64,000 bases of DNA from Candidatus Nanohaloarchaea archaeon (GTDB lineage: Archaea > Nanohalarchaeota > Nanosalinia > Nanosalinales > Nanosalinaceae), in contig JBDGRK010000018.1 of NCBI GenBank assembly GCA_042218075.1, positions 32,001 to 96,000 of the forward strand, given 5' to 3'. The translations under genes were made by a program, and so were the position numbers. Under the pieces are notes generated by a model, which was given only the letters and a program-made list of their open reading frames with translations, ran no database searches and was not told the DNA's origin. Below, piece after piece: positions 9,800 through 23,989 of this stretch. The stretch's first letter is position 1; each line of letters begins with the position of its first letter.

Positions 9800-11461
9800 C
9801 TAGTCTTTCTTTTCGGTTTTCAGATAATTCTCCAATTTATACACATTTAGTTCGAATCCGGAAACCGGCTGTTCAAGTTCCCAGTCTTCAAGCACTTCCC
9901 CGGATAATTCACCTATTATACCTATCCTCTCTCCTCTACATCTGATCTCGCCCTGTCTTCCCTGCCTGAAACAGTCTTTCCCAACATCTCTTACCTCCAG
10001 CTGAATACCTAAATCCCTTTCCAGAACCTGTAGAACTTCTCTAGCGTCTGTGAAATCTGCATCTCCATGAGATTCGACGTAGGCAAGTTTCCTACAGTTT
10101 CTCACACCGGTGTATGATGATTCTGAGGGTATTGAGACATCATCAACCTCAAAGAACTTCTGCGGGTAACTTCTATGCTTATTTCTCTTCAGCACATTCA
10201 TCATGCTTGGTAACAGCCAGTTCCTCACAACAGTGTAATCCTCGGTTAATGCATTGCTCATCTCGGCAACCTCTTTTTCTTCGACATTCATTCTCTTGAA
10301 AAGTTTCTCTTTGTTCGAGAGTATGTAAGTATTTGTCTCAAGTGCACCTGTTCCCTGAAGTACATCCCTCAAAATATTGCTGAAATCGCTTAATTGGTTT
10401 TCTTCAGCAGTCTGATCAACCTCAGGCAGTTCAGGCTGAATATTATCATACCTGTGCGCGATAACTATATCCTCTATCAGGTCATACTGATGCATTATGT
10501 CGGTCCTGTAAGCCGGTACCTCAACCTTTATCTCATCACCCGCTTCCGCACCGAACTTCATCTGCTTCAGTCTATCCATCATCTCCGATCTGGAAAGTTC
10601 AAGCCCTGAAATTCTATTGGCATATTCGGGATCGATCTTCCATTCCCCTGGGGAAAGCTCCGGCATTTTTTCACCATCTAATTCAACTGACTCGATAACT
10701 CCTCCCCGCTCTTCCAGAGCAGTGACCAGAATGTTAAGCGCCTTTACAACCGATTTCCTATCATTCCCGGTAACATCTATGAAAATCTCACTCGTCCCTG
10801 TATCTACTTCGGTCAGCTGGTTGTTTATTATGGGGGGAAAACTAAGCACCTTGCCCTCCGAATCCTCGATAATTGGATATCTATCATTATCCTCCAGTAT
10901 CCAGGAGTACTTTATCCCTTTCTCGTGCTCGCTCAGGATTTCACCCAGCTGCATATGGCTGTCGTATTCCAGCGGTTTGAAGCTGACCTTTTCGGGCTCG
11001 ACCGCCCTGTAGGTGAAAGGAGGTTCTAAAACTGAGAGATCGTGAAGCCCAATAGCGAGTTTCTCCCTTCTTCTTCCTATCGTCTCGTGCAGCTTTTCCT
11101 GCATCTGGATGAGTCCGTTTATCATCCTGTCTGAAAGTTCTAAATTCCTGACAACAGCCCCGGCTATAACCGGCCTTACTTCATCTACCGATTCATGGAT
11201 ATCTACAGATATATCGCCTCTTTTCACATTGTAACCCTCTATACCTGTATCAACGCCAAAGAATCCTCTGTAGGCTCTTGCCAGACCTTCAACCGATAGA
11301 AGATCTGGCCTGTTTGGATATACTTCTACATCCCATTTTTCACCTTCTACATGGTTCCAGTGGACTCCCAGAAAAGAAGCCTCCTCGTCCAGTCGCTGTT
11401 CCTCTATTTTTTGTCCAACCAGTTCATCGAATTCTCTCTTGTTGATCTTGATGTGCGCCAT
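9800..11461 (-). CDS. pheT: Phenylalanyl-tRNA synthetase beta subunit
   Basis: PNRPDLLSVEGLARA, QEKLH, VLSFPPIIN, VPAYRTDIMH. Confidence 0.96.
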   Translation of the reverse strand: MAHIKINKREFDELVGQKIEEQRLDEEASFLGVHWNHVEGEKWDVEVYPNRPDLLSVEGLARAYRGFFGVDTGIEGYNVKRGDISVDIHESVDEVRPVIAGAVVRNLELSDRMINGLIQMQEKLHETIGRRREKLAIGLHDLSVLEPPFTYRAVEPEKVSFKPLEYDSHMQLGEILSEHEKGIKYSWILEDNDRYPIIEDSEGKVLSFPPIINNQLTEVDTGTSEIFIDVTGNDRKSVVKALNILVTALEERGGVIESVELDGEKMPELSPGEWKIDPEYANRISGLELSRSEMMDRLKQMKFGAEAGDEIKVEVPAYRTDIMHQYDLIEDIVIAHRYDNIQPELPEVDQTAEENQLSDFSNILRDVLQGTGALETNTYILSNKEKLFKRMNVEEKEVAEMSNALTEDYTVVRNWLLPSMMNVLKRNKHRSYPQKFFEVDDVSIPSESSYTGVRNCRKLAYVESHGDADFTDAREVLQVLERDLGIQLEVRDVGKDCFRQGRQGEIRCRGERIGIIGELSGEVLEDWELEQPVSGFELNVYKLENYLKTEKKD

Positions 11462-11472
11462 TCACAATCACC

Positions 11473-12852
11473 TCAGAGATTCGGCCTCCAGACCGACGTG
11501 TTTTCCAGTAGTTCGATATCATTCCTGTAGAGTTCCCTGACATCTTCAAGACCGGCTGATCTCATCGCAATCCTTGGAATTCCAAGTCCCCAAGCCAATA
11601 CCGTAGCCTCGAATCCTAACATGGGTTTTACCACCTCAGGCCGGAACATGCCTGATCCGCCGAGACCTATCCATTCCTTTTCCTGGGAATCCCAGACCTG
11701 GACTTCCACGCTCATCTCGGTGTAGGGGTAATAGCTGGGGATAAGCCTGAATTGATCGTATCCCATCTTTTCAAAGAACTGGCTCAAATAGGCCTTAAGA
11801 TTCACGAAGTTTAGATCTTCTCCCACCACAATACCATCCGACTGGTAGAACTCAGCATTATGATAACGATCAATAGTTTCATTCCTGAAAACTCTTGAAG
11901 TAGTGAAGAACTTGGCCGGAAGATCTTTCTTCTCAAGTTCCGCAAGTTTCTGCGCCGAGACACCTGTAGTATGAGTCCTTAAAACATTTCTTGAAGCCTC
12001 CTTCTCCGACCAATCATATTCCCATCCAGAGCTTCCGGTCTCCCAGCCGTTCTCATGAGTTTGCTTTACTCTTTCAACGTAGTCTCCCTGCTCTGACAGA
12101 TCTGATTTCTCAGGCTTTTTCATAAAGAATGTGTCCTGCAACTCTCTTGCCGGGTGATCCTGCGGTATGTAGAGCGAATCAAAGCACCAGAAGCCCGGCT
12201 GAATGAAGGATCCTTCCATTTCTTTGAATCCCATTTCCCTCCATGTTTTGTTTGCATATTCTATTATCTGCTTGTAGAAGTGCTTCTTTCCCGTCCTGGG
12301 CGTCTTAGTCCTCGCCTCAACGTTGAAATCTTCTTCTATCTCATCCGGTTCTATCTCGTCTCCTCTCTCCGAAAGCAGAAGCTCTCTCCTGGTGGCTTTC
12401 TCAACCTCAACTAGCCCTCTTTCCTGAATCTCTTCATCAAATTCTCCTTCCTCCAGCCTCTGCCGGGTAACATCTTCAGCATCTTCACCTGGTTCAGTCA
12501 GGTAAACTTCTCCTTGGTCGACTTCCACCCAATTCTTCTCACGGGCCTTCCCGAGCGCAACGTCCAGTTCGAGATTTTCAAGCTCCGAGAGTTGTTTCTC
12601 GCCTCTGCTGACCCTCTCCACCAGCCTGTACTCCGGCGACCCTTCTTCAACTATCTCCTCTCCCTCACCTGTTAGTTCGTAGCCGATAACCTCTTCTTCC
12701 TCGACTTCTACAAGATCTTTCTCCTCCAGTTCTAAAGCCGCCCTGTTAACCATGCTCTGGTCGTATCCCATTGCTTCAAGGTCCTCTACCGTAAGTTCGG
12801 AGTGATCCTTGAGCTCTTCCAGGATCTGGATGGCCTGGGAGGAAAGCCTCAT
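11473..12852 (-). CDS. pheS: Phenylalanyl-tRNA synthetase alpha subunit
   Basis: PQDHPARELQDTF, LRTHTT, FRNETID, GMFRPE; ATG 12852 follows SD GGAGGTG. Confidence 0.96.
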   Translation of the reverse strand: MRLSSQAIQILEELKDHSELTVEDLEAMGYDQSMVNRAALELEEKDLVEVEEEEVIGYELTGEGEEIVEEGSPEYRLVERVSRGEKQLSELENLELDVALGKAREKNWVEVDQGEVYLTEPGEDAEDVTRQRLEEGEFDEEIQERGLVEVEKATRRELLLSERGDEIEPDEIEEDFNVEARTKTPRTGKKHFYKQIIEYANKTWREMGFKEMEGSFIQPGFWCFDSLYIPQDHPARELQDTFFMKKPEKSDLSEQGDYVERVKQTHENGWETGSSGWEYDWSEKEASRNVLRTHTTGVSAQKLAELEKKDLPAKFFTTSRVFRNETIDRYHNAEFYQSDGIVVGEDLNFVNLKAYLSQFFEKMGYDQFRLIPSYYPYTEMSVEVQVWDSQEKEWIGLGGSGMFRPEVVKPMLGFEATVLAWGLGIPRIAMRSAGLEDVRELYRNDIELLENTSVWRPNL

Positions 12853-12972
12853 GCGTGCACACCTCCGGAGTGAAGCTTTAATAACCCGGCCTGTATCCAA
12901 AAATCTATAGCTGAGTCCGAATAGAAATTTTCAATACTCGAAAAAACGTCCACCCTTCAAAGACAGACTCAT
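12849..12972 (-). promoter_or_regulatory. pheS leader: uORF MSLSLKGGRFFEY* with candidate +1 shift site CGT-TTT-TTC
   Basis: uORF 12972-12931; +1 frame open 30 codons to a TGA overlapping the pheS ATG; TATA-like CTTAAG at 12995-13000. Confidence 0.7.
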
Positions 12973-13010
12973 GAAATACTTATGAAAACAAAAACTTAAG
13001 TAGATTGGCT

Positions 13011-13772
13011 CTATGCAGTCTCGATTACCGCCGCAAGTAGTATAAGGCCTAGACCCAGGGACACCAGCTTTAGATAGTCGATCCAGGTGTCTCTCTCGAA
13101 GTGCTTTCTGTAGACCGCTGCGGAGATCAGAGATCCTGAAACACCCGCAACTATGAACCCTAACATCTCAAGTGTAGCATGTGGGATATAAACCACGGAA
13201 TGGGCTGCAGACAGTTTCTTGGCTAAGAATCCCATGAATGTTCCTAGAACCGATGCGTTCCATACAAGTATGAAGGCTCCTGAAGAGCTTATTACGGCTG
13301 AAACAACGAGGATTATTCCAAAGACCAGTAAATTATTGATCAAAACCGATAGAAAAGCTGAAGGCGATGCTGCAGACCCGGTCACGACTGCCTGGATACT
13401 TGAACCTCCAATAGTAGAAACTCCTAGCGACTCTAACTGGGCTGCATACTGTGAGACCTGTATTGAAAGGTTCTCCGGCGAAACCAGTATCGCTAGAAGG
13501 AAGAAAGCCGCTACCTCACCCAGGAACAGCGAGCCGTATATCCTGATCTCCTCAAAATGAGGTCTGCCATCCTCCCTTTCATCCTCCAGGAAAGTTCTGG
13601 TGAGGGGATAAAGGAGAGGAATAGATGCGAAAACTACAGCGAGAATCGATACATCCGAGGGAAAAGCAACGGTCGCGGCAATGTATCCCAACAGTCCGGA
13701 TGAAAGTCCGAGCAGTGCCAGCAAAATGTAATTGTCCTGCTTTCCCTCCCTGTAGATCAGCTCCGGAAGCAT
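13011..13772 (-). CDS. SpoIIM/DUF95-family membrane protein
   Basis: Multi-TM; INN, WNASVLG, PHATLE and AAVIE motifs. Confidence 0.8.
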   Translation of the reverse strand: MLPELIYREGKQDNYILLALLGLSSGLLGYIAATVAFPSDVSILAVVFASIPLLYPLTRTFLEDEREDGRPHFEEIRIYGSLFLGEVAAFFLLAILVSPENLSIQVSQYAAQLESLGVSTIGGSSIQAVVTGSAASPSAFLSVLINNLLVFGIILVVSAVISSSGAFILVWNASVLGTFMGFLAKKLSAAHSVVYIPHATLEMLGFIVAGVSGSLISAAVYRKHFERDTWIDYLKLVSLGLGLILLAAVIETA

Positions 13773-13850
13773 GTACAGGTTATAAATTGCTAATTTAAAG
13801 GAGTTCAGACCAGAGTATTTTTATGTTTTAAATCCAATACATTATAACAC

Positions 13851-14165
13851 GTGATCGGAATGGGAAGCACTCTCACCGCCAGAGTATCGGACGAGTTGAA
13901 CGAAGCCCTCGACAAGATCAGCGAAAAGGAAAAACTTGAGAAGAGCGCTGTAGCCAGGAGATTTCTGGAGAAGGCGGTTAAAGATTACCGTATGGATAGA
14001 GCACTTGAAGAGTACAGTGGAGGAGAAGCAACACTTAGAAAGGCGGCTGATACAGCTGGCGTCAGCCTGTGGGAGTTCATGGAGAGAGTGAAGCAGGAGG
14101 GAATCAAGCTTAACTACACGGAAAGAGACCTGGAAGAAGACTTGCAGGCTGTAAAGAATGAATAA
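13851..14165 (+). CDS. UPF0175-family putative antitoxin
   Basis: RHH-like N-terminus, ATLRKAADTAGVSLWEF; overlaps PIN gene. Confidence 0.8.
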   Translation: MIGMGSTLTARVSDELNEALDKISEKEKLEKSAVARRFLEKAVKDYRMDRALEEYSGGEATLRKAADTAGVSLWEFMERVKQEGIKLNYTERDLEEDLQAVKNE

Positions 14166-14673
14166 AGCTGTAGCCGATGCCACGGTGCTGATCTACCTCG
14201 CGAAGTTGGACAGGCTAGAAGTTCTGCTGGACGAATTTGAGAGAATACTTGTGCCGGAAAAGGTGGAGGAAGAAGTTATTGATGGAGGCAGAAAGGCAGG
14301 GAGGGAAGACTACCTGAAGATAGACAGCTTCATGGAAAATGACGAAGTGGAGCTAAATGAAGCAGAAATACCTGAAAAGGCGGAAAGACTTGGTATGGAG
14401 CCGGGAGAGAGATCTGTCCTGTCTCTGGCCCTGAATATGGATGTGAATGTCGTACTCGTTGATGAAAGCAGTGTCAGGGAGGCGGCTAAAAGTCTTGATC
14501 TAGAGCCCAGGGGCACCCTATACCTTCTGCTGAAACTGGTTAGAAGAGGAGAGATAGATTTCGAGGGTTTCCTGGATATCATGGACAGGCTAACCGAATC
14601 AGGTTTTTACCTGGATGAAAGAGTTTACTCGAAAGCAGTGAGAGAAGCCAGCAAACTGGACTCTACAACATGA
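14158..14673 (+). CDS. DUF3368-like PIN-domain protein (putative toxin)
   Basis: VADATVLIYL, GERSVLSLA, VLVDE, PRGTL. Confidence 0.8.
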   Translation: MNKAVADATVLIYLAKLDRLEVLLDEFERILVPEKVEEEVIDGGRKAGREDYLKIDSFMENDEVELNEAEIPEKAERLGMEPGERSVLSLALNMDVNVVLVDESSVREAAKSLDLEPRGTLYLLLKLVRRGEIDFEGFLDIMDRLTESGFYLDERVYSKAVREASKLDSTT

Positions 14674-14674
14674 T

Positions 14675-15778
14675 TTAAACCGAAAACTCCAGCTCTTCCT
14701 CCACGTACTGCTCGACTCTCGGCGCTTTTTCTTCTCTTTTCTGCTGGTGTTCATTCAGGAACTCCTCCATTTTCTGCCTGGCGATCTGCTTGAGTTCACC
14801 GGAAAGCATTTTCCCGCTCGAGTACTCCTGCTTGATTCTCTGGAGCTCTGAATCATCCTCTACCAGGTGGAATGTCAGAAGCTCGAAAACCATATCTTCA
14901 GATAGATCGGCTCCCTTTTTCCTGTGTTCTTCAACGGAATCCTGTCCCCCGGTCTTTGCTTCATCGATCTTCTGCTTCGCCTCCTCGATCGAATCCGTGA
15001 GCGCGATATAGCTCTTTGGGTCGCTGCTCGACATCTTGCCTCCCTGAAGGCCTCTCATGAACTTGTTGTAGGTGGAGGAAGGCTTCACGAAATCCTGCCT
15101 TCTGTACTTCGATGCGACCTCCCTTGTCAGCCTGATATGCGGATCCTGGTCCAGACCGACCGGAACAACTGTAGGTTTCGGACCTCCGTTCTCCGGGAAC
15201 TGTGGCCTCAGGATGTCAGCATACTGCGTGAGGGCCGAGGCTATCTTGCCGGGTTCCGCGTTTCCGTATGTTGCCTCCATTTCATTCTGCGTCAGGTGCT
15301 TGGCAAACATTTTGGATCTCGCAAGGTGGTCGTTTCCAGCCTGGCTCTGGAAGTAGAAATCCACGCTCTCAATATCAATCCCCAGAGCCGCATAATTCTT
15401 CAGGTACTGCTCCACCACCATCTCTCTCGCCTCTTCAAACGATATGTCTCGAGTATTATAGGATTCAATGTCCGCCGCCGCGATCGTGACCTCTGCACCC
15501 ATCTGCTGGTACATCTTGATCTGGTCGACCACGCACTTGTGGCCGAAGTGGAAGATTCCGGAGGGCATTATACCGGTGATCATCGCAAAGTCCTCTCCAT
15601 CCTCTTTCGCATCGAGAAGCACATCCAGGTCCCGGTGGCCGAAGACAATATTCCTCCTGATGAACCTGTGGTCCGGCATCCGGTCCTCTACTTCCTCTAT
15701 AGGCTCGATACCAAACTTCTCCATCTTCTCTCGATAGTTTCCAATCTCAACATCTCCCCAAGGATCGATCTCAGGCAT
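14675..15778 (-). CDS. trpS: Tryptophanyl-tRNA synthetase
   Basis: TGIMPSGIFHFGH, VPVGLDQDPH, KMSSS. Confidence 0.96.
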   Translation of the reverse strand: MPEIDPWGDVEIGNYREKMEKFGIEPIEEVEDRMPDHRFIRRNIVFGHRDLDVLLDAKEDGEDFAMITGIMPSGIFHFGHKCVVDQIKMYQQMGAEVTIAAADIESYNTRDISFEEAREMVVEQYLKNYAALGIDIESVDFYFQSQAGNDHLARSKMFAKHLTQNEMEATYGNAEPGKIASALTQYADILRPQFPENGGPKPTVVPVGLDQDPHIRLTREVASKYRRQDFVKPSSTYNKFMRGLQGGKMSSSDPKSYIALTDSIEEAKQKIDEAKTGGQDSVEEHRKKGADLSEDMVFELLTFHLVEDDSELQRIKQEYSSGKMLSGELKQIARQKMEEFLNEHQQKREEKAPRVEQYVEEELEFSV

Positions 15779-15782
15779 TTTG

Positions 15783-16880
15783 TCAACCTCTTACTTCGAT
15801 TTTCTTCTCTGTAAACTTTTCAAGCTTCTTATGATTGATTTTTGACTCAAATTCTGGATTTGAAGGTATCTCGATATGGCCATTCTTCATCTCTGGCTTA
15901 TCCATAATAGTTTCTCTGAAGTATCTCGACTGCGGAGCTATATCCGAAGGATGTGCAACCTGGCTCATGCTTGCAGCAGCTAATTGGTACATGGCGCCGA
16001 TACCTGATTCAACCAAGCCCCCTATCCATAGATCAATATCTTTCTCTTCGCATATGGAGTTTATCTCCTTCGAGGCTTGAATGCCTCCTACTCTCTGAGG
16101 CTTCAGATTGATTATACTACAGGCATCAAGCTTAGAAGCTCTTCTTACATCCTCAGGACTTCTTATACTTTCATCCAGACAGATAGGAGTATCTAAATCC
16201 TGAGAAAGAATGGAGTGATTCACGATATCTCTGTGGCCGAGAGGCTGTTCAATCATCTGAAGATTAAACTCGTCAAATTTCTGAATCCTCTCTCTATCTT
16301 CAAGATTGTAGTTCGAGTTCGCATCCACCATCAGATCATAGTCAGGAAATTCGTCCCTCACAGCTTTGACATACTTGACATCGTTACCAGACCTGATTTT
16401 TATTTTAGCCCTAGAATACCCCTTTTTCCTGTATTTTCGAACCTTATCAACGAGTTGTTCAGGATTTTCCTGTATTCCTATACTTACACCACATTCAGCT
16501 CTTTCTTCCTCTCCTTCAAACAGTTCAGAGAGATTTTTCTCTTCCTCGATCATTTTCCTGTTATGAAGAAGCATTTCACCTGCAGACTTAGCCATCAGAT
16601 TGCCTTTATACCCGGAAATTGATTCTCGATATTCCTCTATAGATTCAGCATTTCTTATAGCAGGTATAGCGAATCTTTCCATAAACTCAATTACAGCTTC
16701 CGTATATTCATGGTTATAGAGAGGAGCGAACTGAGCAGAAGCCTCACCATAGTAAAATCTCTCATCGTCAAAACACATCAAAATCACTACTTCTCTGTTC
16801 CTAATCTCTCCAAAACCAGTCTCAAAAGGATTCTTCAAGGGAAGCTGGACCTTTCTAATCTCGAATTTCTCAAAATCCAT
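15783..16880 (-). CDS. OSBS/N-succinylamino acid racemase (enolase superfamily)
   Basis: PFETGFG, KIK, DANS, EQPL, LDES, NLKPQRVGG. Confidence 0.85.
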   Translation of the reverse strand: MDFEKFEIRKVQLPLKNPFETGFGEIRNREVVILMCFDDERFYYGEASAQFAPLYNHEYTEAVIEFMERFAIPAIRNAESIEEYRESISGYKGNLMAKSAGEMLLHNRKMIEEEKNLSELFEGEEERAECGVSIGIQENPEQLVDKVRKYRKKGYSRAKIKIRSGNDVKYVKAVRDEFPDYDLMVDANSNYNLEDRERIQKFDEFNLQMIEQPLGHRDIVNHSILSQDLDTPICLDESIRSPEDVRRASKLDACSIINLKPQRVGGIQASKEINSICEEKDIDLWIGGLVESGIGAMYQLAAASMSQVAHPSDIAPQSRYFRETIMDKPEMKNGHIEIPSNPEFESKINHKKLEKFTEKKIEVRG

Positions 16881-17931
16881 CAGAGACCTCCTCCAAGAAG
16901 GTTTGCAAGATTTTACAGTACTGTTCCATACTCTCTATCTCAACGTATTCATTCTCGCCGTGGAGATCGTATCCTTCAGGGCCGAAACAGACCGCAGGTA
17001 TTCCTCTCTCCGTGAAGAACCTCATGTCACTGGCAAAGTTTTCTCTTCTGAAACCTGCTTGACCTGAAACCTCTTCAGCAGAGCTCCTCAGACCCTGTAC
17101 AAAGACATTATCTTCATCCGCCTCCATCATCGGAGCTTCTTTCAGGATCTCTGTATCAATTCCTTCTATACCTTCAATGTCCTCCAATACCTGATCTCTC
17201 GGATATTGATTTGAGAAACGTATATCGAGCTGTACAGACGCCTTATTCGGAATTTTGTTTACAGGACCTTCTGAAGAAATTTTTCCAAGGTTGATAGTGG
17301 TTGAAAAATTTTTTTCGTGGTCGAAGTTTTCCCTGATTTCCTGGTATTTTTCCAAAAGTTTTTCTGCCGCGTTTTCACCTTTCTCCGGTTTTGATGAGTG
17401 CGCTGATTTTCCTTCAGTCGAGATTTCCAGCTGTAGCACTCCCTTCTGCCTGGTTACTATGGAGGGAAAGCTTCCTGAATCATCAGGCTCACCGGATACA
17501 ACGAACTCGGGCTCGAGATCGGCCTCATCGATCACATAGCCTGTGCCGTTAAATCCTCCTCTCTCCTCATCTGAGGTCAAGAGAAGTGCGACATCTTCAT
17601 CCTCTAACCCCTCCAAAACTTTCATCATGCAGGCCACGCCCGACTTCATGTCAGCAGCACCTCTCCCATAGATTCTGCCGTTTTCTACCTCTGGTTCGAA
17701 AATTTCGTCTTCTGCTCCGATCACATCAAGGTGGCCATGAAGAAGTATCCGGGGGTTTTCACCCCTTGAGATCAGAACAGATTTCTCATCATTTTTCTCG
17801 AATCGCTGAAAATCTAGCCCGGAATCAAGCTGTCCTTCTATGTAGTTCAGACAGTTTCCGAGTTCCTGAGCGTTTCCTTCAACGGTTTTGAACCGGATAA
17901 GATCTTTCGTGGTTTCCTCAACGGTTTTCAT
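16870..17931 (-). CDS. M20 metallo-amidohydrolase (ArgE/DapE family)
   Basis: HGHLDV, YGRGAADMK, DEE, GEP, C-terminal HGENE. Confidence 0.9.
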   Translation of the reverse strand: MKTVEETTKDLIRFKTVEGNAQELGNCLNYIEGQLDSGLDFQRFEKNDEKSVLISRGENPRILLHGHLDVIGAEDEIFEPEVENGRIYGRGAADMKSGVACMMKVLEGLEDEDVALLLTSDEERGGFNGTGYVIDEADLEPEFVVSGEPDDSGSFPSIVTRQKGVLQLEISTEGKSAHSSKPEKGENAAEKLLEKYQEIRENFDHEKNFSTTINLGKISSEGPVNKIPNKASVQLDIRFSNQYPRDQVLEDIEGIEGIDTEILKEAPMMEADEDNVFVQGLRSSAEEVSGQAGFRRENFASDMRFFTERGIPAVCFGPEGYDLHGENEYVEIESMEQYCKILQTFLEEVSDGF

Positions 17932-18705
17932 GCTACTCTCTCACCGTTTTCCCGGAACTCGTAGTCTGAGGCTCGGGCTGCTTTTGCTAGGCTTTGTGCA
18001 GCATCTACTTCGGAAACTTCTCCTGCCACTACTATTGCATCTCCATCTTCGAAGGACATATCTAGGCCTTCTTCTCCATACATGAATTCTTCAAATTTAT
18101 CGTTGGGAGGAACTTCCGAGTACATACCTCCGTCGTATATATCCGCGTAGGCTTCCCTCATTACTGCTCCATCCATTTCCTTGCTTGGATTAATCTCATT
18201 TCCCAAAGCCTGAATTTCCTCCATAATTTCATCGTCTTCTCTTTCAGGATGCGGGTAAAACTCGAAACAGTTGTCGGCGCACTGGACCATATCGGGATTC
18301 TGAGTCCTGTAACCTACCAATTCCTCTCCATCAGCCAACTCCATTACTCCCCTACTCAGCAGTGTGCTTCCTACACATCTGCCCTGTAAATGATCACTTA
18401 CGGCTAGTCCCTCCTCATAGATCGCATCAGCCTTCTTGGAGACACCTGAAAAGGCCACATACTCGCCGCTCTCATCCTTCGCAGTGATTAAGAGAGGAAC
18501 ACGCAGATGAGCCTCGGCATCCTCTTCAGTAGGAACACCTTCCTTGGAGAAAGCATCCTGCGCCACATCAACAAGCTGGGACTCAGCCTCAGGATTCTCA
18601 TCCAGAAAACTTTCAGGATTTTGATAAACCTCTATCTCAAGGCTGTTTCCAAAAGCGTCCACCCTTCGGGGCTTCCGCTGTACCGTAGTCTTCTTGTGCT
18701 TTCAT
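17928..18705 (-). CDS. GNAT-like acyltransferase, probably expressed via a +1 frameshift near 18652
   Basis: LAVSDHLQGRCVGSTLL acetyl-CoA motif; ATG 18705 frame (MKAQEDYGTAEAPKGGRFWKQP*) joins the main ORF by +1 at TTT-TGG; GTG 18662 is the alternative start. Confidence 0.65.
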
Positions 18706-18803
18706 AATCAAATCACGTAACCAAACATAGTCACAAAAACCTTAAAAAGGTTCTCAGATGGTAAAAGAAAAATTGGTTATAGCTGAGTCTATTTCAGCGT
18801 AAA

Positions 18804-18951
18804 TTAAAAGTTTAGATTCAGTCTTGGATCCAGAAAAATCTTGAGAACTAAATACCATGAGAAATTCTTGATGGAAGAAATTCGGACGTAACTACGACTG
18901 ATTAAATCAATAGATACAGCGGGTCCAAAAACATCCACCTTTCAGCCGCAT
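18804..18951 (-). promoter_or_regulatory. Upstream Trp leader: uORF MRLKGGCFWTRCIY* with shift motif TGT-TTT-TGG
   Basis: uORF 18951-18907 after TATA-like TTTTTAAG (18973-18980); +1 frame open 40 codons to TAA at 18804. Confidence 0.6.
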
Positions 18952-18981
18952 ATTAAATATTCCAAGAGAAAGCTTAAAAAT

Positions 18982-19743
18982 TCACTCCCATTCCATCTTC
19001 TTGGCCTTGTGACCCAGCATGCCATCGTAGCCTGAAGTCGACATCAGGACAGGATAGAATTCCTTCTCAGCTCTCATCTCTTCACTCTCTCCTCTCGCGA
19101 AAACTTCTCCTTTATCGACCTTCTCAAAGTTCTCCGCTACAAACTCCCAGTCGCCCATCACTGTTCCTATCCTCTTGAAATGTTCTGGAGAGGAAGTCTC
19201 GAACTCCTGTTCTATCACACCCTCGGATGCTAGAAAGTTCTTCATCACCCTATAGGCGTTCTCCGCAGCTTTTCCGGTTCCCTGCTCACCGGCTTCAAGA
19301 GTAACTCCATCTACTTGCTCATTCAAAGCTCCTACACTCACAGGAAAATGGCACGAATAATCAACCCCTGTCGATTCAATAAGCGATCTGACCTCAGTAT
19401 TCTTCCTGCTGTGGTTTGCAAACGGTCTATCAAACGATTTTGTCGAATGGACGTCGAGAACCTTCGTGCCTTTGACTTTTTCTAGTATTTTCGCCGCGAG
19501 CCTCTCCTCGTAATTTTCAGAATCTAAATTGCCGGGAAAAGACCTGTTAAGATCCACTTCAGTGAACCTCTCTCCCTTTTCTAGAGCTCTTTGATTCGCT
19601 ACCAGGAACTGGACGGGTTTCCTGAACTCCCACTCCTTGTCGAGGAATCTTTCAATCGCCTCCTTGCCGCAGGGCTCGTCACCATGTATGCATCCCGATA
19701 CCGTGTACTCTGGATTTTCTTCTCCCCTTCTTTCTACTCTCAC
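18982..19743 (-). CDS. Succinylglutamate desuccinylase/aspartoacylase family protein
   Basis: IHGDEPCG, DLNRSFPG, LDVHST, TLEAG. Confidence 0.88.
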   Translation of the reverse strand: MRVERRGEENPEYTVSGCIHGDEPCGKEAIERFLDKEWEFRKPVQFLVANQRALEKGERFTEVDLNRSFPGNLDSENYEERLAAKILEKVKGTKVLDVHSTKSFDRPFANHSRKNTEVRSLIESTGVDYSCHFPVSVGALNEQVDGVTLEAGEQGTGKAAENAYRVMKNFLASEGVIEQEFETSSPEHFKRIGTVMGDWEFVAENFEKVDKGEVFARGESEEMRAEKEFYPVLMSTSGYDGMLGHKAKKMEWE

Positions 19744-19767
19744 AGCTTAAGAATACTAAGACGGCAT

Positions 19768-20940
19768 TTAAGAATTCTTCTCGAGTGCCTGGATCGCTGG
19801 AAGATCCTCTCCGCTCATGAATCTCACGAAAGCTCCACCCGCAATCGAAACGTGTGAGAACTCGTCCAGTTCGTGATCGAAGCGGTGCACAAGCGAGGAA
19901 GTGTGGCCGCCTCCCAGCACGGTGAAGCAATCTGTCTCCGCTATGGCTTCAACTATTTTCCTCGTTCCTTCAGGGTGTTCCTCGAATGCTCCCATCGGAC
20001 CCTTCATCAGGATATCATCCGCCTCTCTTATCTCTGATACAAATTTTTTTGTAGTTCCCTCGCCGATGTCCCAGGTCATCTCTCCCCCGGGCACTTCCCC
20101 AACCTCGTAATCGCCAGAATCAGTCCTTACATCTGCGGGAAGAACAATCTTCTCGCCATGTTTATCCAGTATCTGTCTCAACTCTTCCTCCCTTGAGGAA
20201 AAGCTCTGCTCCTCTATCCACTCGCTCTTCTCACCCAGATCGTGCCCCTTGATCTTCAGCGCCAGTTCTCCGGGGATCCCGCCCAGAAGCACCTTATCCA
20301 CGTCTTCAATCATTTCGTTCATAATCCCTATCAGATCTGAAGGTTTTTCTCCCCCTAAAACCATCAATCCGTCGTGGAATTCCTCACTGACTCTGGAGCA
20401 GTTCTCATACTCCTTCTGCATTATGGGTCCGGCACAGGATTCCAGCCTTTCCGTAAACCCGACCATCGAGCCGTGGGATCTATGTGCGGCGGAGAAGGCA
20501 TCATCGACATAGATATCGAAGTACTGGGATATCTTCTCAACAAAAAAGTCGTGAGCGTGGACCTGTGCGGGAGCGTTCTGGAGCTCTTCGGACAGGAACC
20601 GTATGTTCTCCAGCATCGCCACCTCACCATTATCCATCCTCGCAACTTTCTCCCCGAGTTCGGGACCGAAGAAACTTGGTACGAACTCAACTTCTCTTTC
20701 CATGGATTCTTCGAGTATTTCCGAATGTTTCTCCAAGGACAGGAAATCCTTCCTTGCCGGCCTCCCCTGGTGCGCGACTATCACCACTTTCGCATCTTTT
20801 CCACTCAGTTCCTCGATAGTTTCCAGGTATCTCTCGAACCTCACAGTCTTCCTGGGTTCGCCATCCTCTATAGGAAGGTTCAGGTCCGTCCTGAGAAGTA
20901 CTCTCCTTCCCTCTAACTCCACATCTTCAAAAGTCCGCAT
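19768..20940 (-). CDS. pgk: Phosphoglycerate kinase
   Basis: RTDLNLP, HQGRP, LENIRF, DAFSAAHRSH, GGGHT. Confidence 0.95.
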   Translation of the reverse strand: MRTFEDVELEGRRVLLRTDLNLPIEDGEPRKTVRFERYLETIEELSGKDAKVVIVAHQGRPARKDFLSLEKHSEILEESMEREVEFVPSFFGPELGEKVARMDNGEVAMLENIRFLSEELQNAPAQVHAHDFFVEKISQYFDIYVDDAFSAAHRSHGSMVGFTERLESCAGPIMQKEYENCSRVSEEFHDGLMVLGGEKPSDLIGIMNEMIEDVDKVLLGGIPGELALKIKGHDLGEKSEWIEEQSFSSREEELRQILDKHGEKIVLPADVRTDSGDYEVGEVPGGEMTWDIGEGTTKKFVSEIREADDILMKGPMGAFEEHPEGTRKIVEAIAETDCFTVLGGGHTSSLVHRFDHELDEFSHVSIAGGAFVRFMSGEDLPAIQALEKNS

Positions 20941-20998
20941 CAGTATTACGTTGTATTACCTCGATCGTTTTTAAGGCTTAACCGGGAAAAAACCAGAT

Positions 20999-21454
20999 AT
21001 GACAGAAGAACTGAAAATCAGGGTAGAGGACGAAAGTCGGGCCAAAAACAGGATTAAAGAGGTTGGAGCCGATCTAGAGAAAAAAGTTTCGGTGAAAGAC
21101 ACTTACTTCCAGGGACAGGGAGAAGACGAACTCAAAATAACGGAAACTGGTGAAGGAGAGTTTCTAAGGAAGTATGAGAAAAAAGATTCCGGCTTTCAGC
21201 AGGTAAAAAATGATGAAGTTGAAAATCCTGATGAAAAGAAACAGCAACTGGAGCAGCAATTCGGCATAAAGACAGTACAGCAGAAAGAGATAAGCTACTA
21301 TTCACTGGGAGACAAGACCATAATTCTGAACAGGATACGGAATACAGGAGTCTTCCTAATTCAGGGAGAAAACGTTAGGAAAGAGTTTCTGGAAGAAGAA
21401 CTTGGTTTTGAGAACTCTGAGTATATTGAAGCACCGTTCAGCGATCTTGAATGA
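20999..21454 (+). CDS. CYTH-domain protein
   Basis: N-terminal EELKIRV and DTYF motifs. Confidence 0.7.
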   Translation: MTEELKIRVEDESRAKNRIKEVGADLEKKVSVKDTYFQGQGEDELKITETGEGEFLRKYEKKDSGFQQVKNDEVENPDEKKQQLEQQFGIKTVQQKEISYYSLGDKTIILNRIRNTGVFLIQGENVRKEFLEEELGFENSEYIEAPFSDLE

Positions 21455-21733
21455 CTATGCCTCAACTTTCCTAGAATTCTCAATCTCCTCATCCATAATT
21501 TTGCCAAGATAGTTCACGATCTCTGAATCCGGGTTCAGCCTGTAGAGGGTTGTTCCAACGTACTTCTTTTTCTCCATAACTATGCGGTTTTGTTCCAGTT
21601 TATCCCATATTTTGTAAAGTGTGGAGCGTGAAATCTCTGCTTTATCCGCCAGTTCTGTTTTGGAGTATCCTACGTTCGGATGATCGAGTAAAACATCCAA
21701 AACTTTTTCTATCCTGTCATCAATCAGAGTCAT
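21455..21733 (-). CDS. Winged-helix DNA-binding protein
   Basis: YSKTELADKAEISRSTLY HTH. Confidence 0.75.
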   Translation of the reverse strand: MTLIDDRIEKVLDVLLDHPNVGYSKTELADKAEISRSTLYKIWDKLEQNRIVMEKKKYVGTTLYRLNPDSEIVNYLGKIMDEEIENSRKVEA

Positions 21734-21814
21734 ATAAGGTAGGAAGAATCAAGATATATAATTGTTTTGATTTTCCAACACTGAACGTCCAGAAATATAC
21801 ACACAAGGGAAAAT

Positions 21815-22093
21815 ATGGACTCAGAGGAAAAGAAAATAGCCATTCTGGCGAAACTTGCGAGGAAGAAAAAGTTAGGCATGAACTACATCCCTAAAGAAAA
21901 GGCTTTCAGCAAGATTCCATCTCACGACCGCGGAAATCTTGACAGTATTCTCAAAGAAATGCGTAGAAACGGACTGATCGAATTTCACAAGAACCGGAAA
22001 TGTATTTCCATCAATCCCGGAGCAGTGCCTGAAGTTATCGAACCAATTGGCGAGGAAGTTCCTGATTATATCATCGAGAGACTGGAGAGCTAG
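21815..22093 (+). CDS. Small hypothetical protein, possibly winged-helix
   Basis: 92-aa ORF divergent from the wHTH gene. Confidence 0.55.
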   Translation: MDSEEKKIAILAKLARKKKLGMNYIPKEKAFSKIPSHDRGNLDSILKEMRRNGLIEFHKNRKCISINPGAVPEVIEPIGEEVPDYIIERLES

Positions 22094-22135
22094 TCAAACC
22101 ATATTTAACTTCTTCCTCGTAAAACTTCAACACTA

Positions 22136-22283
22136 ATGAAAGGTGAATATTTTGGATTGTCGCAGGTTCCATCTGGAAGCTGCGTTGAGAAGCAGAATTC
22201 CTGCTTCGAATCGGCGATCAAGTAAAGTTTCTATAAAACCAGCTGTAGCTATAAAAACTTCTTCTCCGAGTGATTCTGCATGA
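22136..22283 (+). promoter_or_regulatory. glyS leader: 29-aa uORF MKGEYFG... with candidate +1 shift site TAT-TTT-GGA
   Basis: uORF 22136-22225; +1 frame open 42 codons to TGA 22281-22283 overlapping glyS ATG 22280; TATA-like ATTTAA at 22103-22108. Confidence 0.68.
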
Positions 22284-23989
22284 GGCTAGGCGAGAAAGTC
22301 ACCGAGCTTTCGAAGAGAAGAGGCTTCTATTTCCATACCTCCGGGGCTTATGGTGGAGTCGGAGGCTTCCAGACTTTCGGTCCAGAGGGAGCAGAACTGA
22401 AGAGAAATATTGAAGACTCCTGGAGAGATAAGTTCTCGCGCGAGCTTGGAAACAGGGAGATTGAAGCTCCGACAATCATGCAGGAAGACGTTTTCCGGGC
22501 TTCTGGCCACCTGGAGACTTTCGATGATATGATCATCGAGTGCCCGGAATGCGGAGAGTCCATCAGGGCAGACCACCTGGTCGAAGACAACACCGGTATA
22601 GAGGAAGCGGAGAGCCTTTCGACGGAGAGAATAGAAGAGCTGATCTCCGGGCACGACATCAAGTGCGGCTCATGCGGCAATGAACTCTCGGAAATCGAGG
22701 TGGAAGACTTCAACCTGATGTTCGAGACTTCTATCGGTCCGGGAGATTCACAGCCCGGATACCTGAGGCCAGAGACAGCGCAGGGCATCTTCGTTGAGTT
22801 TCCGCAGCTGAAAGAATACGAGAGAAACCAGCTCCCGTTTGGTATAACCCAGATAGGTAAGGCGTACAGGAACGAGATATCTCCGAGGAAAGGGCTTGTC
22901 AGGGTCAGGGAGCTGACTCAGGCAGAACTGGAAAAGTTCATCGATCCGGTGGAGGATGAACCGCCGCTTGAGGAGGTAGATGACGTGGAGCTTAAGCTCT
23001 ATCCGCGTGAAAGACAGGGAGAAGGAGAACAGGATTACCTCAGGCTCACCGTTAGAGAGGCAGTCGAAGAGGAAGTTGTTGAGTCTGAGTGGATAGCCTA
23101 CTACCTCGCTCACGCCAAGCTCTGGTTCGAGTCGATTGGAGTCGACATGGAAAGGTTCAGGTTCCGCCAGCACCTGGAGGACGAGCTCTCCCACTACTCG
23201 ACGGACTGCTGGGACGCTGAATCACAGGTGGATGGAGACTGGATAGAGATCGCGGGATTCTCATACAGGGGGTGCTACGACCTTTCAAAGCACGAAAAGT
23301 ATTCCCAAGATGACTTCAAAGTCTTCAAAGAATATGAAGAGCCGAGGGTCGAGAAAAGAGCGAAGGTGGATCCCGACATGGGCTGGCTTGGTCCAACTTA
23401 CGGAGACCACGCTTCAGAGATAAGTGAAGAGCTAGAGAGGATGGTGGAGGAAGAGCCAGAAGTCTTCGAGAGGAATGAAGAGCTGAGGCTGGAGATTGAC
23501 GGAAAGATGTTTGAAGTTCCGGTTGAGAAGACAGGCTTCAAGATAGAAGAAGTTAAGAAGAACGGCGAGCACATTCTGCCACACGTCGCGGAGCCTTCCT
23601 TCGGCATCGACAGGGCAGTCTACACTGTGCTTGGCCACGCCTACGACGAGGACGAGGTTGATGGAGAAGAACGGAAGGTGCTCAGGATGTCGAATGATGT
23701 TGTGCCGACGCAAGTAGCTGTCTTTCCACTAATGGACAAGCCGGAGCTGAGTGAAAAAGCCAGAGAGGTCGAGCAAAAGCTGAGGAATGCTGGATTCTCT
23801 GTGAAGTACGATGAGTCGGGAAGCATCGGAAAGCGCTACAGGAGGCAGGACGAGATCGGGACTCCTTTCTGCATCACCGTTGACTACGAAACCCTTGAAG
23901 AGGAGCCGGAGACAGTCACTGTAAGGTACAGGGATTCGACAGAGCAGGAAAGAATAGACATCAGTAAACTCAAAGAATACCTGGAGTAA
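22280..23989 (+). CDS. glyS: Glycyl-tRNA synthetase (alpha2 type)
   Basis: YLRPETAQGIF, YRNEISPR, EPSFGIDR, RYRRQDEIGTP. Confidence 0.96.
   Translation: MRLGEKVTELSKRRGFYFHTSGAYGGVGGFQTFGPEGAELKRNIEDSWRDKFSRELGNREIEAPTIMQEDVFRASGHLETFDDMIIECPECGESIRADHLVEDNTGIEEAESLSTERIEELISGHDIKCGSCGNELSEIEVEDFNLMFETSIGPGDSQPGYLRPETAQGIFVEFPQLKEYERNQLPFGITQIGKAYRNEISPRKGLVRVRELTQAELEKFIDPVEDEPPLEEVDDVELKLYPRERQGEGEQDYLRLTVREAVEEEVVESEWIAYYLAHAKLWFESIGVDMERFRFRQHLEDELSHYSTDCWDAESQVDGDWIEIAGFSYRGCYDLSKHEKYSQDDFKVFKEYEEPRVEKRAKVDPDMGWLGPTYGDHASEISEELERMVEEEPEVFERNEELRLEIDGKMFEVPVEKTGFKIEEVKKNGEHILPHVAEPSFGIDRAVYTVLGHAYDEDEVDGEERKVLRMSNDVVPTQVAVFPLMDKPELSEKAREVEQKLRNAGFSVKYDESGSIGKRYRRQDEIGTPFCITVDYETLEEEPETVTVRYRDSTEQERIDISKLKEYLE

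Follow-up and report, generated by a model that had tools for sequence, protein, structure and literature searches.

Leaders with a cognate sensor codon before nanohaloarchaeal aminoacyl-tRNA synthetase genes: a candidate +1 frameshift switch

In a 64,000-nucleotide (nt) stretch of contig JBDGRK010000018.1 (positions 32,001 to 96,000 of the forward strand, hereafter the window) from the genome of a Candidatus Nanohaloarchaea archaeon (GCA_042218075.1), short upstream open reading frames (uORFs) in front of aminoacyl-tRNA synthetase genes carry the motif GGTGRA-YRY-TTT-NNN, where NNN is a codon of the amino acid served by the downstream synthetase. These leaders probably act as +1 frameshift sensors similar to that of bacterial prfB, which would feed termination and reinitiation at the synthetase gene. 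The initial annotation of the window had interpreted four such sites as a starvation-sensing +1 frameshift system, and the sequence supports this interpretation through the prfB-like layout, the complementarity of the motif to the organism's own 16S rRNA and the depletion of the cognate residue in the +1 open reading frames (ORFs), from which we infer the frameshift itself.

The strict pattern used in the searches was AARGGTGRAYRYTTT, and the reversed pattern served as the control. In the window, the strict pattern has four matches against 0.01 expected, and 0/100 shuffles reach four. The four sites, which carry a Phe, two Trp and a Gly sensor, were found exactly at the positions given in the initial annotation; the zero frame always ends early, as had been claimed for all four leaders, and the downstream genes named there as synthetases were confirmed by family searches as pheS/pheT, trpS and glyS.

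Sensor codons and the genes that follow them

A set of 101 strict sites was fetched from 29 genomes, where the first ORF of 120 codons or more downstream of the site was clustered and the clusters were named by family searches. A synthetase gene is the first long downstream gene at 62 sites, and the codon that follows TTT is cognate to it in 62/62. The match holds for ThrRS (15/15), SerRS (15/15), GlyRS (13/13), TyrRS (7/7), ValRS (6/6), CysRS (3/3, counting one site with a 152-residue ORF in another frame before the gene), PheRS (2/2) and TrpRS (1/1), and no synthetase behind a non-cognate sensor was found among the 101 sites. The other 39 sites precede Trp-linked operons and TrpB-like or TrpD-like genes (Trp sensors), dehydratase-like genes (Ile sensors), operons of GNAT-like and M20 peptidase genes, small proteins without a known role, and a HisRS operon, where the His sensor lies two genes before HisRS, which is encoded by the second gene of the operon. 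The predicted tracking of synthetase specificity by the sensor codon thus also holds in leaders for Thr, Val, Tyr, Ser, Cys, Pro and His, which lay outside the view of the initial annotation, and the predicted placement before synthetase and amino-acid genes is borne out by this survey. Decoders of the sensor codons are present in the genome of the window, where Aragorn reports 12 tRNAs, or 37 when introns are allowed.

This genome (1.10 Mb, 40 contigs, 46.9% G+C, 92% complete) contains nine strict matches and no match to the reversed control. The five sites beyond the window have the sensors ACC, GTT, TAC, TCC and ATC, and precede thrS, valS, tyrS, serS and a threonine-dehydratase-like gene, respectively, the last of which scores 361.9 bits on the ilvA model, just below the cut-off. 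Looser scans add a Leu unit, a Val-Ile-Leu triple array and two Pro units; the second Pro unit has a variant cassette, whose +1 frame reaches an ATGA overlap with a confirmed ProRS gene. The tandem Val-Ile-Leu array consists of units of exactly 18 nt within one uORF, which share a common zero frame and one joint +1 frame.

Across the phylum, 180 motif matches were obtained against 7 for the control, which gives the enrichment that the initial annotation had proposed to look for; the matches are spread over 54/70 genomes, and the motif is present in 47/49 genomes of the window's own family. In a wider scan of 185,579 species genomes with an ATG-extended motif, the archaeal names among the matches listed were Nanohaloarchaea, Nanohalobium, Nanosalina, Asbonarchaeaceae or bins of an 'uncultured archaeon', and the other matches listed were scattered single bacterial ones at about chance level.

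It is hardly conceivable that the motif reflects chance, assembly error or a functionless repeated or mobile sequence. The genomes are mostly metagenome bins and the leaders are gained and lost among close relatives, as such an origin would allow; the excess over the control, the recurrence of the same layout before eight non-homologous synthetase families, and the flanking leader sequence, which differs between genes, argue against it. A sequencing or assembly error in the T-runs was rejected, as the layout recurs in many genomes. Contigs from two further runs, both of a second study, list no indels across window positions 12500-22500, and the pieces shown cover the Phe cassette and the first Trp leader. 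Transcriptional slippage was rejected by reasoning, as the T-runs are only 3-5 long and slippage would not sense an amino acid.

Several further loci were seen in the same genome. The Val-Ile-Leu array lies at 64174-64227 (−) of contig C36 (locus L253) and is followed by a 129-residue ORF and a 499-residue protein with LAGLIDADG and helix-turn-helix domains. The Ile/Val/Leu leaders of relatives (L040, L050, L054, L097) and those on C36 near 64000 and 74250 are followed by a small CA-rich ORF beginning MT(x)HNHTT, which ends by a TAATG-type or short overlap with the following gene. At C36 67294 (+), a cassette-like sequence GGTGAATACTTT is followed by TAA instead of a sense codon and has no upstream ATG; its +1 frame ends in ATGA at a 254-residue ORF whose N-terminus resembles, by eye, that of the AstE/AspA-like gene in the window. 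This unit may be a remnant, a chance occurrence or a stop-codon sensor. At C23 62094, a short ORF spells KGEYF-F in other codons; without a sensible target, it was judged to be chance, as were loose-motif matches inside ordinary ORFs.

Frame geometry and composition of the leaders

An in-frame ATG is found 3-42 nt upstream of the motif without an intervening stop at 99/101 sites, and at 48 sites the ATG is directly adjacent, giving the reading M-K-G-G-x-F. Of the two exceptions, one lies within the +1 frame of a preceding motif and the other beside a run of N. The zero-frame stop follows 24-96 nt past the start of the motif.

The first stop of the +1 frame falls within −15 to +12 nt of the synthetase start in 59/61 leaders, compared with 0/61 for the zero frame and 4/60 for the +2 frame, where the start was taken as the ATG nearest to the +1 stop, a choice with which the conserved N-termini agree. 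Assuming a GTG or TTG start brings the two outliers into line as well. ATGA or GTGA overlaps account for 21/61 leaders and the NTGNNTGA type for 12/61, with ATGA the commonest arrangement. In an annotation-free test, which asked whether an ATG that opens 20 codons or more lies next to the stop, the corresponding counts were 63/100 for the +1 frame, 3/100 for the zero frame and 10/99 for the +2 frame, and exact ATGA overlaps numbered 26, 5 and 2, respectively. At about a third of the sites, the +1 ORF ends in cognate codons without an overlap.

An out-of-sample set was obtained by locating thrS in the phylum by its protein and reading the DNA upstream of the 29 genes. Thirteen carry the GGTGRA cassette with ACC or ACT, eight carry variant leaders and eight are without a leader. 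Among the variants, two keep TTT-ACC with GGTGGC or GGCGGA, and six have CCC or CCT as the P-site codon, then ACT, behind GGTGGA or CGTGGT. In all eight variants, which were found independently of the motif, the +1 stop lies −3 to +1 nt from the thrS ATG, and it forms ATGA in 6/8. The prediction that the +1 frame keeps its overlap is therefore upheld both by the 59/61 synthetase leaders and by these 8/8.

The zero-frame stops lie at least 45 nt upstream of the gene. For Haloferax volcanii, two reports describe strict coupling at ATGA/TGATG pairs, which is lost when the gap is about 20 nt (PMC6728339, PMC10666635). Given the distance of the zero-frame stop, only ribosomes in the +1 frame would be placed to reinitiate at the gene.

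The composition of the +1 ORFs differs between the two classes of leader. Those of the synthetase leaders are poor in the cognate residue, with 22/426 for Ser against 75 expected, 12/496 for Thr against 25, 14/452 for Gly against 26 and 0/240 for Tyr against 6.5; such depletion is what a frame meant for reading during scarcity should show. The +1 ORFs of the non-synthetase leaders end in clusters of cognate codons. Of their last 12 residues, 67% are Ile, Leu or Val in the Ile leaders and 49% in the Val leaders, where the background is 19%. In the first of the two Trp leaders of the window (Trp leader A) and its relatives, the +1 frame encodes a block ISS(I/V/L)K(N/D)xSW, where the codon-position entropy is 8.5/7.7/15.1, a serine switches from TCN to AGC, and synonymous to non-synonymous differences number 108/193 in the +1 frame against 36/245 and 23/264 in the other frames. 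This third-position variation indicates that the +1 frame is under coding selection. A second, attenuator-like stage is probably present in Trp leader A and in the Ile/Val/Leu leaders. One relative has two Trp cassettes, of which the second is set within the +1 frame of the first, an arrangement that would need two successive shifts.

These frame-specific features bear on a reading in which the leader peptide works by stalling only, where an in-frame pause at the sensor would change the folding of the RNA, the survival of the transcript or its termination, much as bacterial attenuators or ermC-type leaders do. The uORF and its single cognate codon are real, Trp leader A and the Ile/Val leaders contain classical clusters of regulatory codons, one leader without GGTG keeps K-G-G-x-F, and a ribosome paused in a uORF at the extreme 5' end could shield the transcript. 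Stalling alone gives no reason for an open +1 frame that stops at the start codon or for a +1 ORF that avoids the cognate residue, and it leaves the choice of GGT, CGY and TTT and the limits on the P-site codon (UUU, CCC/CCU, CUU, GUU) without a cause. Nor were conserved alternative hairpins seen: the 42 nt from the sensor onward have a mean folding z-score of −0.31, compared with 0.00 and −0.07 in control windows, on which ground a general 3' stimulatory hairpin was also rejected. A hairpin that starts at the sensor is often present in Gly leaders and is not general, and no common structure was seen in single-sequence folds. We consider the stall-only reading unlikely, and the prfB-like +1 shift is retained as the preferred one.

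In the window, the Phe leader uORF (12931..12972, −; zero frame MSLSLKGGRFFEY, then a stop) has a TATA-like sequence TTAAGTTTTT at 12990-12999, some 27 nt ahead of the start codon. Its cassette AAG GGT GGA CGT TTT TTC (12940..12957, −) consists of the Shine-Dalgarno (SD)-like hexamer, the YRY codon, the slippery TTT and the sensor TTC at 12940-12942. The +1 ORF (12849..12941, −) has 30 open codons, and its TGA at 12849-12851 overlaps the pheS ATG at 12850-12852 as ATGA; GGAGGTG lies 7 nt upstream of the pheS ATG. The genes that follow on the same strand are pheS (11473-12852; Pfam tRNA-synt_2d, 252.7 bits) and pheT (9800-11461; tRNA_synthFbeta and B5 domains). The Gly leader uORF (22136..22225, +; MKGEYFGLSQVPSGSCVEKQNSCFESAIK, then a stop) starts MKGEYFG and has the cassette AAA GGT GAA TAT TTT GGA (22139-22156) with the sensor GGA at 22154-22156. 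Its +1 ORF (22155..22283, +) ends in a TGA at 22281-22283 that overlaps the glyS ATG at 22280-22282 as ATGA, and glyS (22280..23989, +; Pfam HGTP_anticodon and tRNA-synt_2b) falls in a cluster with 13 GlyRS genes, whose sensor is GGA throughout.

The trpS operon is preceded by two leaders, a layout that recurs in relatives. Trp leader A (uORF 18907..18951, −; MRLKGGCFWTRCIY, then a stop) has the cassette AAA GGT GGA TGT TTT TGG at 18925-18942, and Trp leader B (uORF 18637..18705, −; MKAQEDYGTAEAPKGGRFWKQP, then a stop) has AAG GGT GGA CGC TTT TGG at 18649-18666, both with the sensor TGG. In leader B, the +1 frame forms the body of a 244-residue GNAT-like protein (17928..18650, −), whose TGA overlaps the ATG of the next gene as ATGA. 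The initial annotation had stated that the +1 frame either reaches an ATGA overlap or forms the first gene of this operon, which stands for pheS, glyS and the motif starting at 18666. It fails for the motif at 18942, where the +1 frame of leader A (18804..18926, −) is neither a gene body nor ends in ATGA: it encodes the conserved block ISSIKNFSW and ends in a TAA at 18804-18806 without a nearby gene start, some 100 nt short of the ATG that opens the second uORF, with T-runs after it. The GNAT-like fold of the 244-residue protein is a lead only, as its match to Pfam Acetyltransf_1 is weak (E 0.0057). The operon continues on the same strand with an M20 peptidase (16870-17931, Pfam), an enolase-superfamily MR_MLE protein (15783-16880, Pfam) and trpS (14675-15778; NF008926, 381.5 bits against a cut-off of 320).

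A gene for an AstE/AspA-type deacylase lies upstream of the trpS operon (18982-19743, −). The gene set at 14675-19743 resembles N-acyl-amino-acid (D-to-L) salvage pathways, such as the D-to-L N-succinyl-amino-acid pathway. In a relative, an Ile/Leu-sensed operon (L257) encodes a GNAT-like protein, then M20, then M29.

Cassette anatomy, 16S pairing and promoters

The E. coli K-12 prfB site AGGGGG-TAT-CTT-TGA and the archaeal GGTGRA-YRY-TTT-NNN share the hexamer, the YRY codon, the NUU codon and the sensor in identical register. The 16S rRNA of the organism ends in GGATCACCTCC, and RGGUGR can form six pairs with its UCACCU, in agreement with the initial annotation, which had named GGTG(A) as the SD core; the alternative hexamer CGTGGT keeps the rRNA register. 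Of the codons in the motif, GGT makes up 22% of the genome's Gly codons, CGY 9% of its Arg codons and TTT 32% of its Phe codons, and the x position encodes R, C, Y or H, yet its codon is always YRY. To judge by these codons, the constraint on the hexamer is one on the RNA and not on the peptide. A purely peptide-level motif was tried and rejected: a six-frame genome search for [KQRT]G[GE][RCYH][FLV] gave 116 matches, and the recognisable leader units carry GGTGRA.

At genes, the spacing from GGTG to ATG peaks at 7 nt, and the GGTG-to-TTT spacing in the cassette is 5 nt; in prfB, too, the SD spacing is shorter, by about 2 nt, than the initiation optimum of E. coli. The RF2 site was reportedly used by Curran and Yarus to time the decoding of sense codons. 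The base after TTT in 100 strict sites is T in 48 and C in 2, and variant slippery sites are CCC_A, CCT_A, GTT and CTT. Each element of the cassette finds support in a review, which describes a 5' SD stimulator and a CUU_U shift site, with UUU_U in a minority, and names as factors in +1 shifting the proneness of UUU_Ynn, weak E-site pairing, which helps, and hungry A-site codons, which favour the shift (PMC5009743).

Two observations concern the translation apparatus itself. A group I intron (RF00028, 57.9 bits) appears to interrupt the 16S gene (contig C28, L255 702-1488, −) immediately ahead of the last exon, which holds helix 45 and the anti-SD tail; the SSU match ends at L255 1430 and the tail lies at about L255 618-660. 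A search for Wyosine_form gave no match in the own genome, with one weak match to the Trm5 family; Wyosine_form is also unmatched in the Haloferax volcanii control, and hence this lack is permissive at most.

TATA-like k-mers before the uORF ATGs peak at −31 to −27, with 67 matches in 98 sequences, and ordinary gene starts in the own genome show the same peak at −31 to −27 (369 matches in 1112 genes). A TATA-like peak at this distance is a signature of leaderless transcripts. Most genes of the genome look leaderless, and about 9% (99/1112 first-ATG ORFs) have GGTG 5-10 nt before the start. Just upstream of the gene-proximal TATA-like box, an AAAACC box is present in 37/61 leaders, compared with 74/1104 genes; it lies about 36-50 nt upstream of synthetase starts, for example at about 22235-22245 of the window.

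A motif conserved at the nucleotide level, with AAAACC as a second conserved box beside the TATA box of the gene, could be taken as a DNA site or as RNA bound by a protein or a tRNA, such as a transcription-factor site or a T-box-like anticodon specifier. A factor site would not switch one triplet per synthetase, however, and the in-frame ATG at nearly all sites and the frame-specific stops are foreign to such a reading. A search of window positions 12000-23000 with E values up to 1 matched no Rfam family, the T-box included, and no acceptor-binding element or conserved fold was found. The AAAACC box is kept at thrS genes without a leader, which indicates that it belongs to the promoter region of the gene. 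This explanation is very improbable, and the leaders continue to be read as translated frameshift sensors.

Proposed mechanism, its weak points and its meaning

In the proposed mechanism, each leader would be a short leaderless cistron that gauges one charged tRNA. The ribosome would initiate at the 5' ATG and translate (K/Q)-G-G-x-(F/P/V/L), which would bring the slippery codon (UUU; more rarely CCC/CCU, GUU or CUU) into the P site and the sensor codon into the A site, at which moment the hexamer GGUGRA (or CGUGGU), one codon upstream, would pair with the 3' tail of the 16S rRNA. When the cognate aminoacyl-tRNA is ample, the sensor would be decoded and translation would end at the stop 3-27 codons later, too far away for reinitiation. 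When it is scarce, the peptidyl-tRNA would slip by +1, as in E. coli prfB, into a frame that is open, poor in the scarce amino acid, and ends on or beside the synthetase start (ATGA, NTGNNTGA, TGATG or a few nt before). A ribosome terminating at this +1 stop would reinitiate, and the synthetase would be made. For some Trp-linked genes, the +1 frame would be the gene body itself, and in Trp leader A and the Ile/Val/Leu leaders, the cluster of cognate codons at the end of the +1 ORF may add the second, attenuator-like stage.

Several observations weigh against this mechanism, or against its generality. The related genomes are not independent samples, and P values attached to the counts above overstate the significance. 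No sensors for Asp, Glu, Lys, Arg, Ala, Asn, Gln or Met were found among the 101 sites, and no leader was found at two ValRS paralogues of the own genome, which are presumably IleRS and LeuRS. No start codon stands at the +1 stop at 37/100 sites. GUU and CCU re-pair poorly, only partly, in the +1 frame, and the 5-nt spacing of the cassette is within the 5-10 nt range of ordinary starts. The thrS leader with GGCGGA has no GGTG and keeps K-G-G-Y-F-T, from which some constraint at the peptide level is possible. The synthetase genes keep a TATA-like box of their own at −30 to −27 (33 k-mer matches in 61 leaders), and the 8/29 thrS genes that have no leader include those of three genomes of the same genus. 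These last two points suggest that the leader is an add-on module with its own promoter, which may govern only part of the expression.

These three genomes lack the thrS leader (loci L228, L232 and L251, against L222), which is present in the window's genome. The ThrRS of the window's genome has 82% identity to that of another genus, compared with 71% to a congener. There are hints that thrS with its leader was exchanged, or was repeatedly gained and lost.

A last point of this kind is that the hexamer holds GTG in the +1 frame in both its GGTGGA and CGTGGT forms, at which the +1 ORF could in principle start independently. The leader would then consist of two overlapping ORFs, where the GTG-started one is coupled to the gene and the ATG-started uORF competes with it or modulates it. 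The ORF listing does start the 244-residue gene at that GTG (17928-18662, −), and the M20 peptidase of one relative offers no alternative start codon ahead of the conserved N-terminus. The sensor would be unread in the +1 frame, however, which leaves the 62/62 codon match without a role, and a stall at codon 7 would place the ribosome over the GTG, so that expression would fall in scarcity, which is the wrong sign. In 48/101 leaders, moreover, the GTG is only 7 nt inside a leaderless-type transcript and has no SD of its own, and one thrS leader without GTG still has the ATGA geometry. An independent start at GTG is thus quite unlikely; together with stalling alone, it is the rival that still has to be reckoned with. 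The +1 shift is compared below with known systems.

The leaders share with bacterial prfB the SD-like hexamer, the YRY codon, the NUU slippery codon and a slow A-site codon; in both, the zero frame ends early, decoding of the sensor depends on the product of the regulated gene, and there is no obligatory 3' structure. The sensor of the leaders, however, is a sense codon, which changes from gene to gene and covers at least 13 amino acids, whereas that of prfB is a stop codon, for which reason the leaders are not a prfB homologue, although they would work like one. Their output would mostly be termination-reinitiation onto a separate gene, whereas that of prfB is a fused product; the gene body itself lies in the +1 frame for the Trp leader B types (GNAT-like gene, M20, TrpD-like), and in most leaders the +1 ORF only ends at the gene start. 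They are also leaderless uORFs of 6-30 codons in Archaea, and would form a regulon rather than serve a single gene, by a shift that is predicted.

Attenuation by leader peptides is known for the trp, ilv, leu and his leaders and for the E. coli pheST leader. As in these attenuators, a short upstream ORF, in which the speed of translation at cognate codons would report charging, would control amino-acid and synthetase genes, and the +1 ORFs of the Ile/Val leaders and Trp leader A end in clusters of cognate codons. The synthetase leaders differ in having a single sensor codon, and a change of frame with a stop-start overlap would take the place of RNA refolding; folding by z-scores and single-sequence folds found no terminator/antiterminator pair. 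T-box riboswitches likewise provide one cis element per synthetase gene in which one triplet specifies the amino acid, whereas the triplet of the leaders lies in a translated ORF, with no Rfam T-box match and no element that binds the tRNA acceptor end, and in a different lineage.

Shifts at hungry codons, namely yeast Ty1 CUU_AGG_C and those induced by starvation in E. coli, are described in PMC5009743 as +1 events driven by a slow A-site codon beside a slippery P-site codon. These cases are constitutive or incidental, whereas the slow codon of the leaders is matched to the regulated gene. The +1 stop of the leaders is also within the distance window given for haloarchaeal ATGA/TGATG coupling in PMC6728339 and PMC10666635. 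Unlike the haloarchaeal pairs, the upstream ORF of the leaders would be available only after the change of frame.

The initial annotation knew of no description of such a system in archaea, and none of such leaders was found in the literature searched; the same literature yielded no archaeal counterpart of T-boxes or leader-peptide attenuators. For Archaea, only one programmed frameshift, a −1 event, is on record according to a 2021 review (PMC8211752). We lean, by a modest margin over even chances, towards a broader claim: that the cassette is a modular 18-nt 'frameshift gauge' with its own promoter, whose specificity is set by one swappable sense codon alone and whose output is either stop-start reinitiation or a conserved second-stage leader peptide (ISSxKxxSW for Trp; runs of Ile/Leu/Val). 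As such, it would be the first autoregulatory +1 frameshift regulon on sense codons in any domain, and the archaeal counterpart of T-boxes and attenuators.

Little has been known so far of the way in which archaea adjust the amounts of their synthetases to tRNA charging. If the proposed mechanism is true, a regulon for at least 13 amino acids, which includes synthetases and genes of amino-acid salvage and biosynthesis, would be governed by a prfB-like +1 shift on sense codons, and the cassette would offer a compact, portable means to sense how far a chosen tRNA is charged. It would also mean that these reduced symbiotic archaea still finely regulate their translation capacity.

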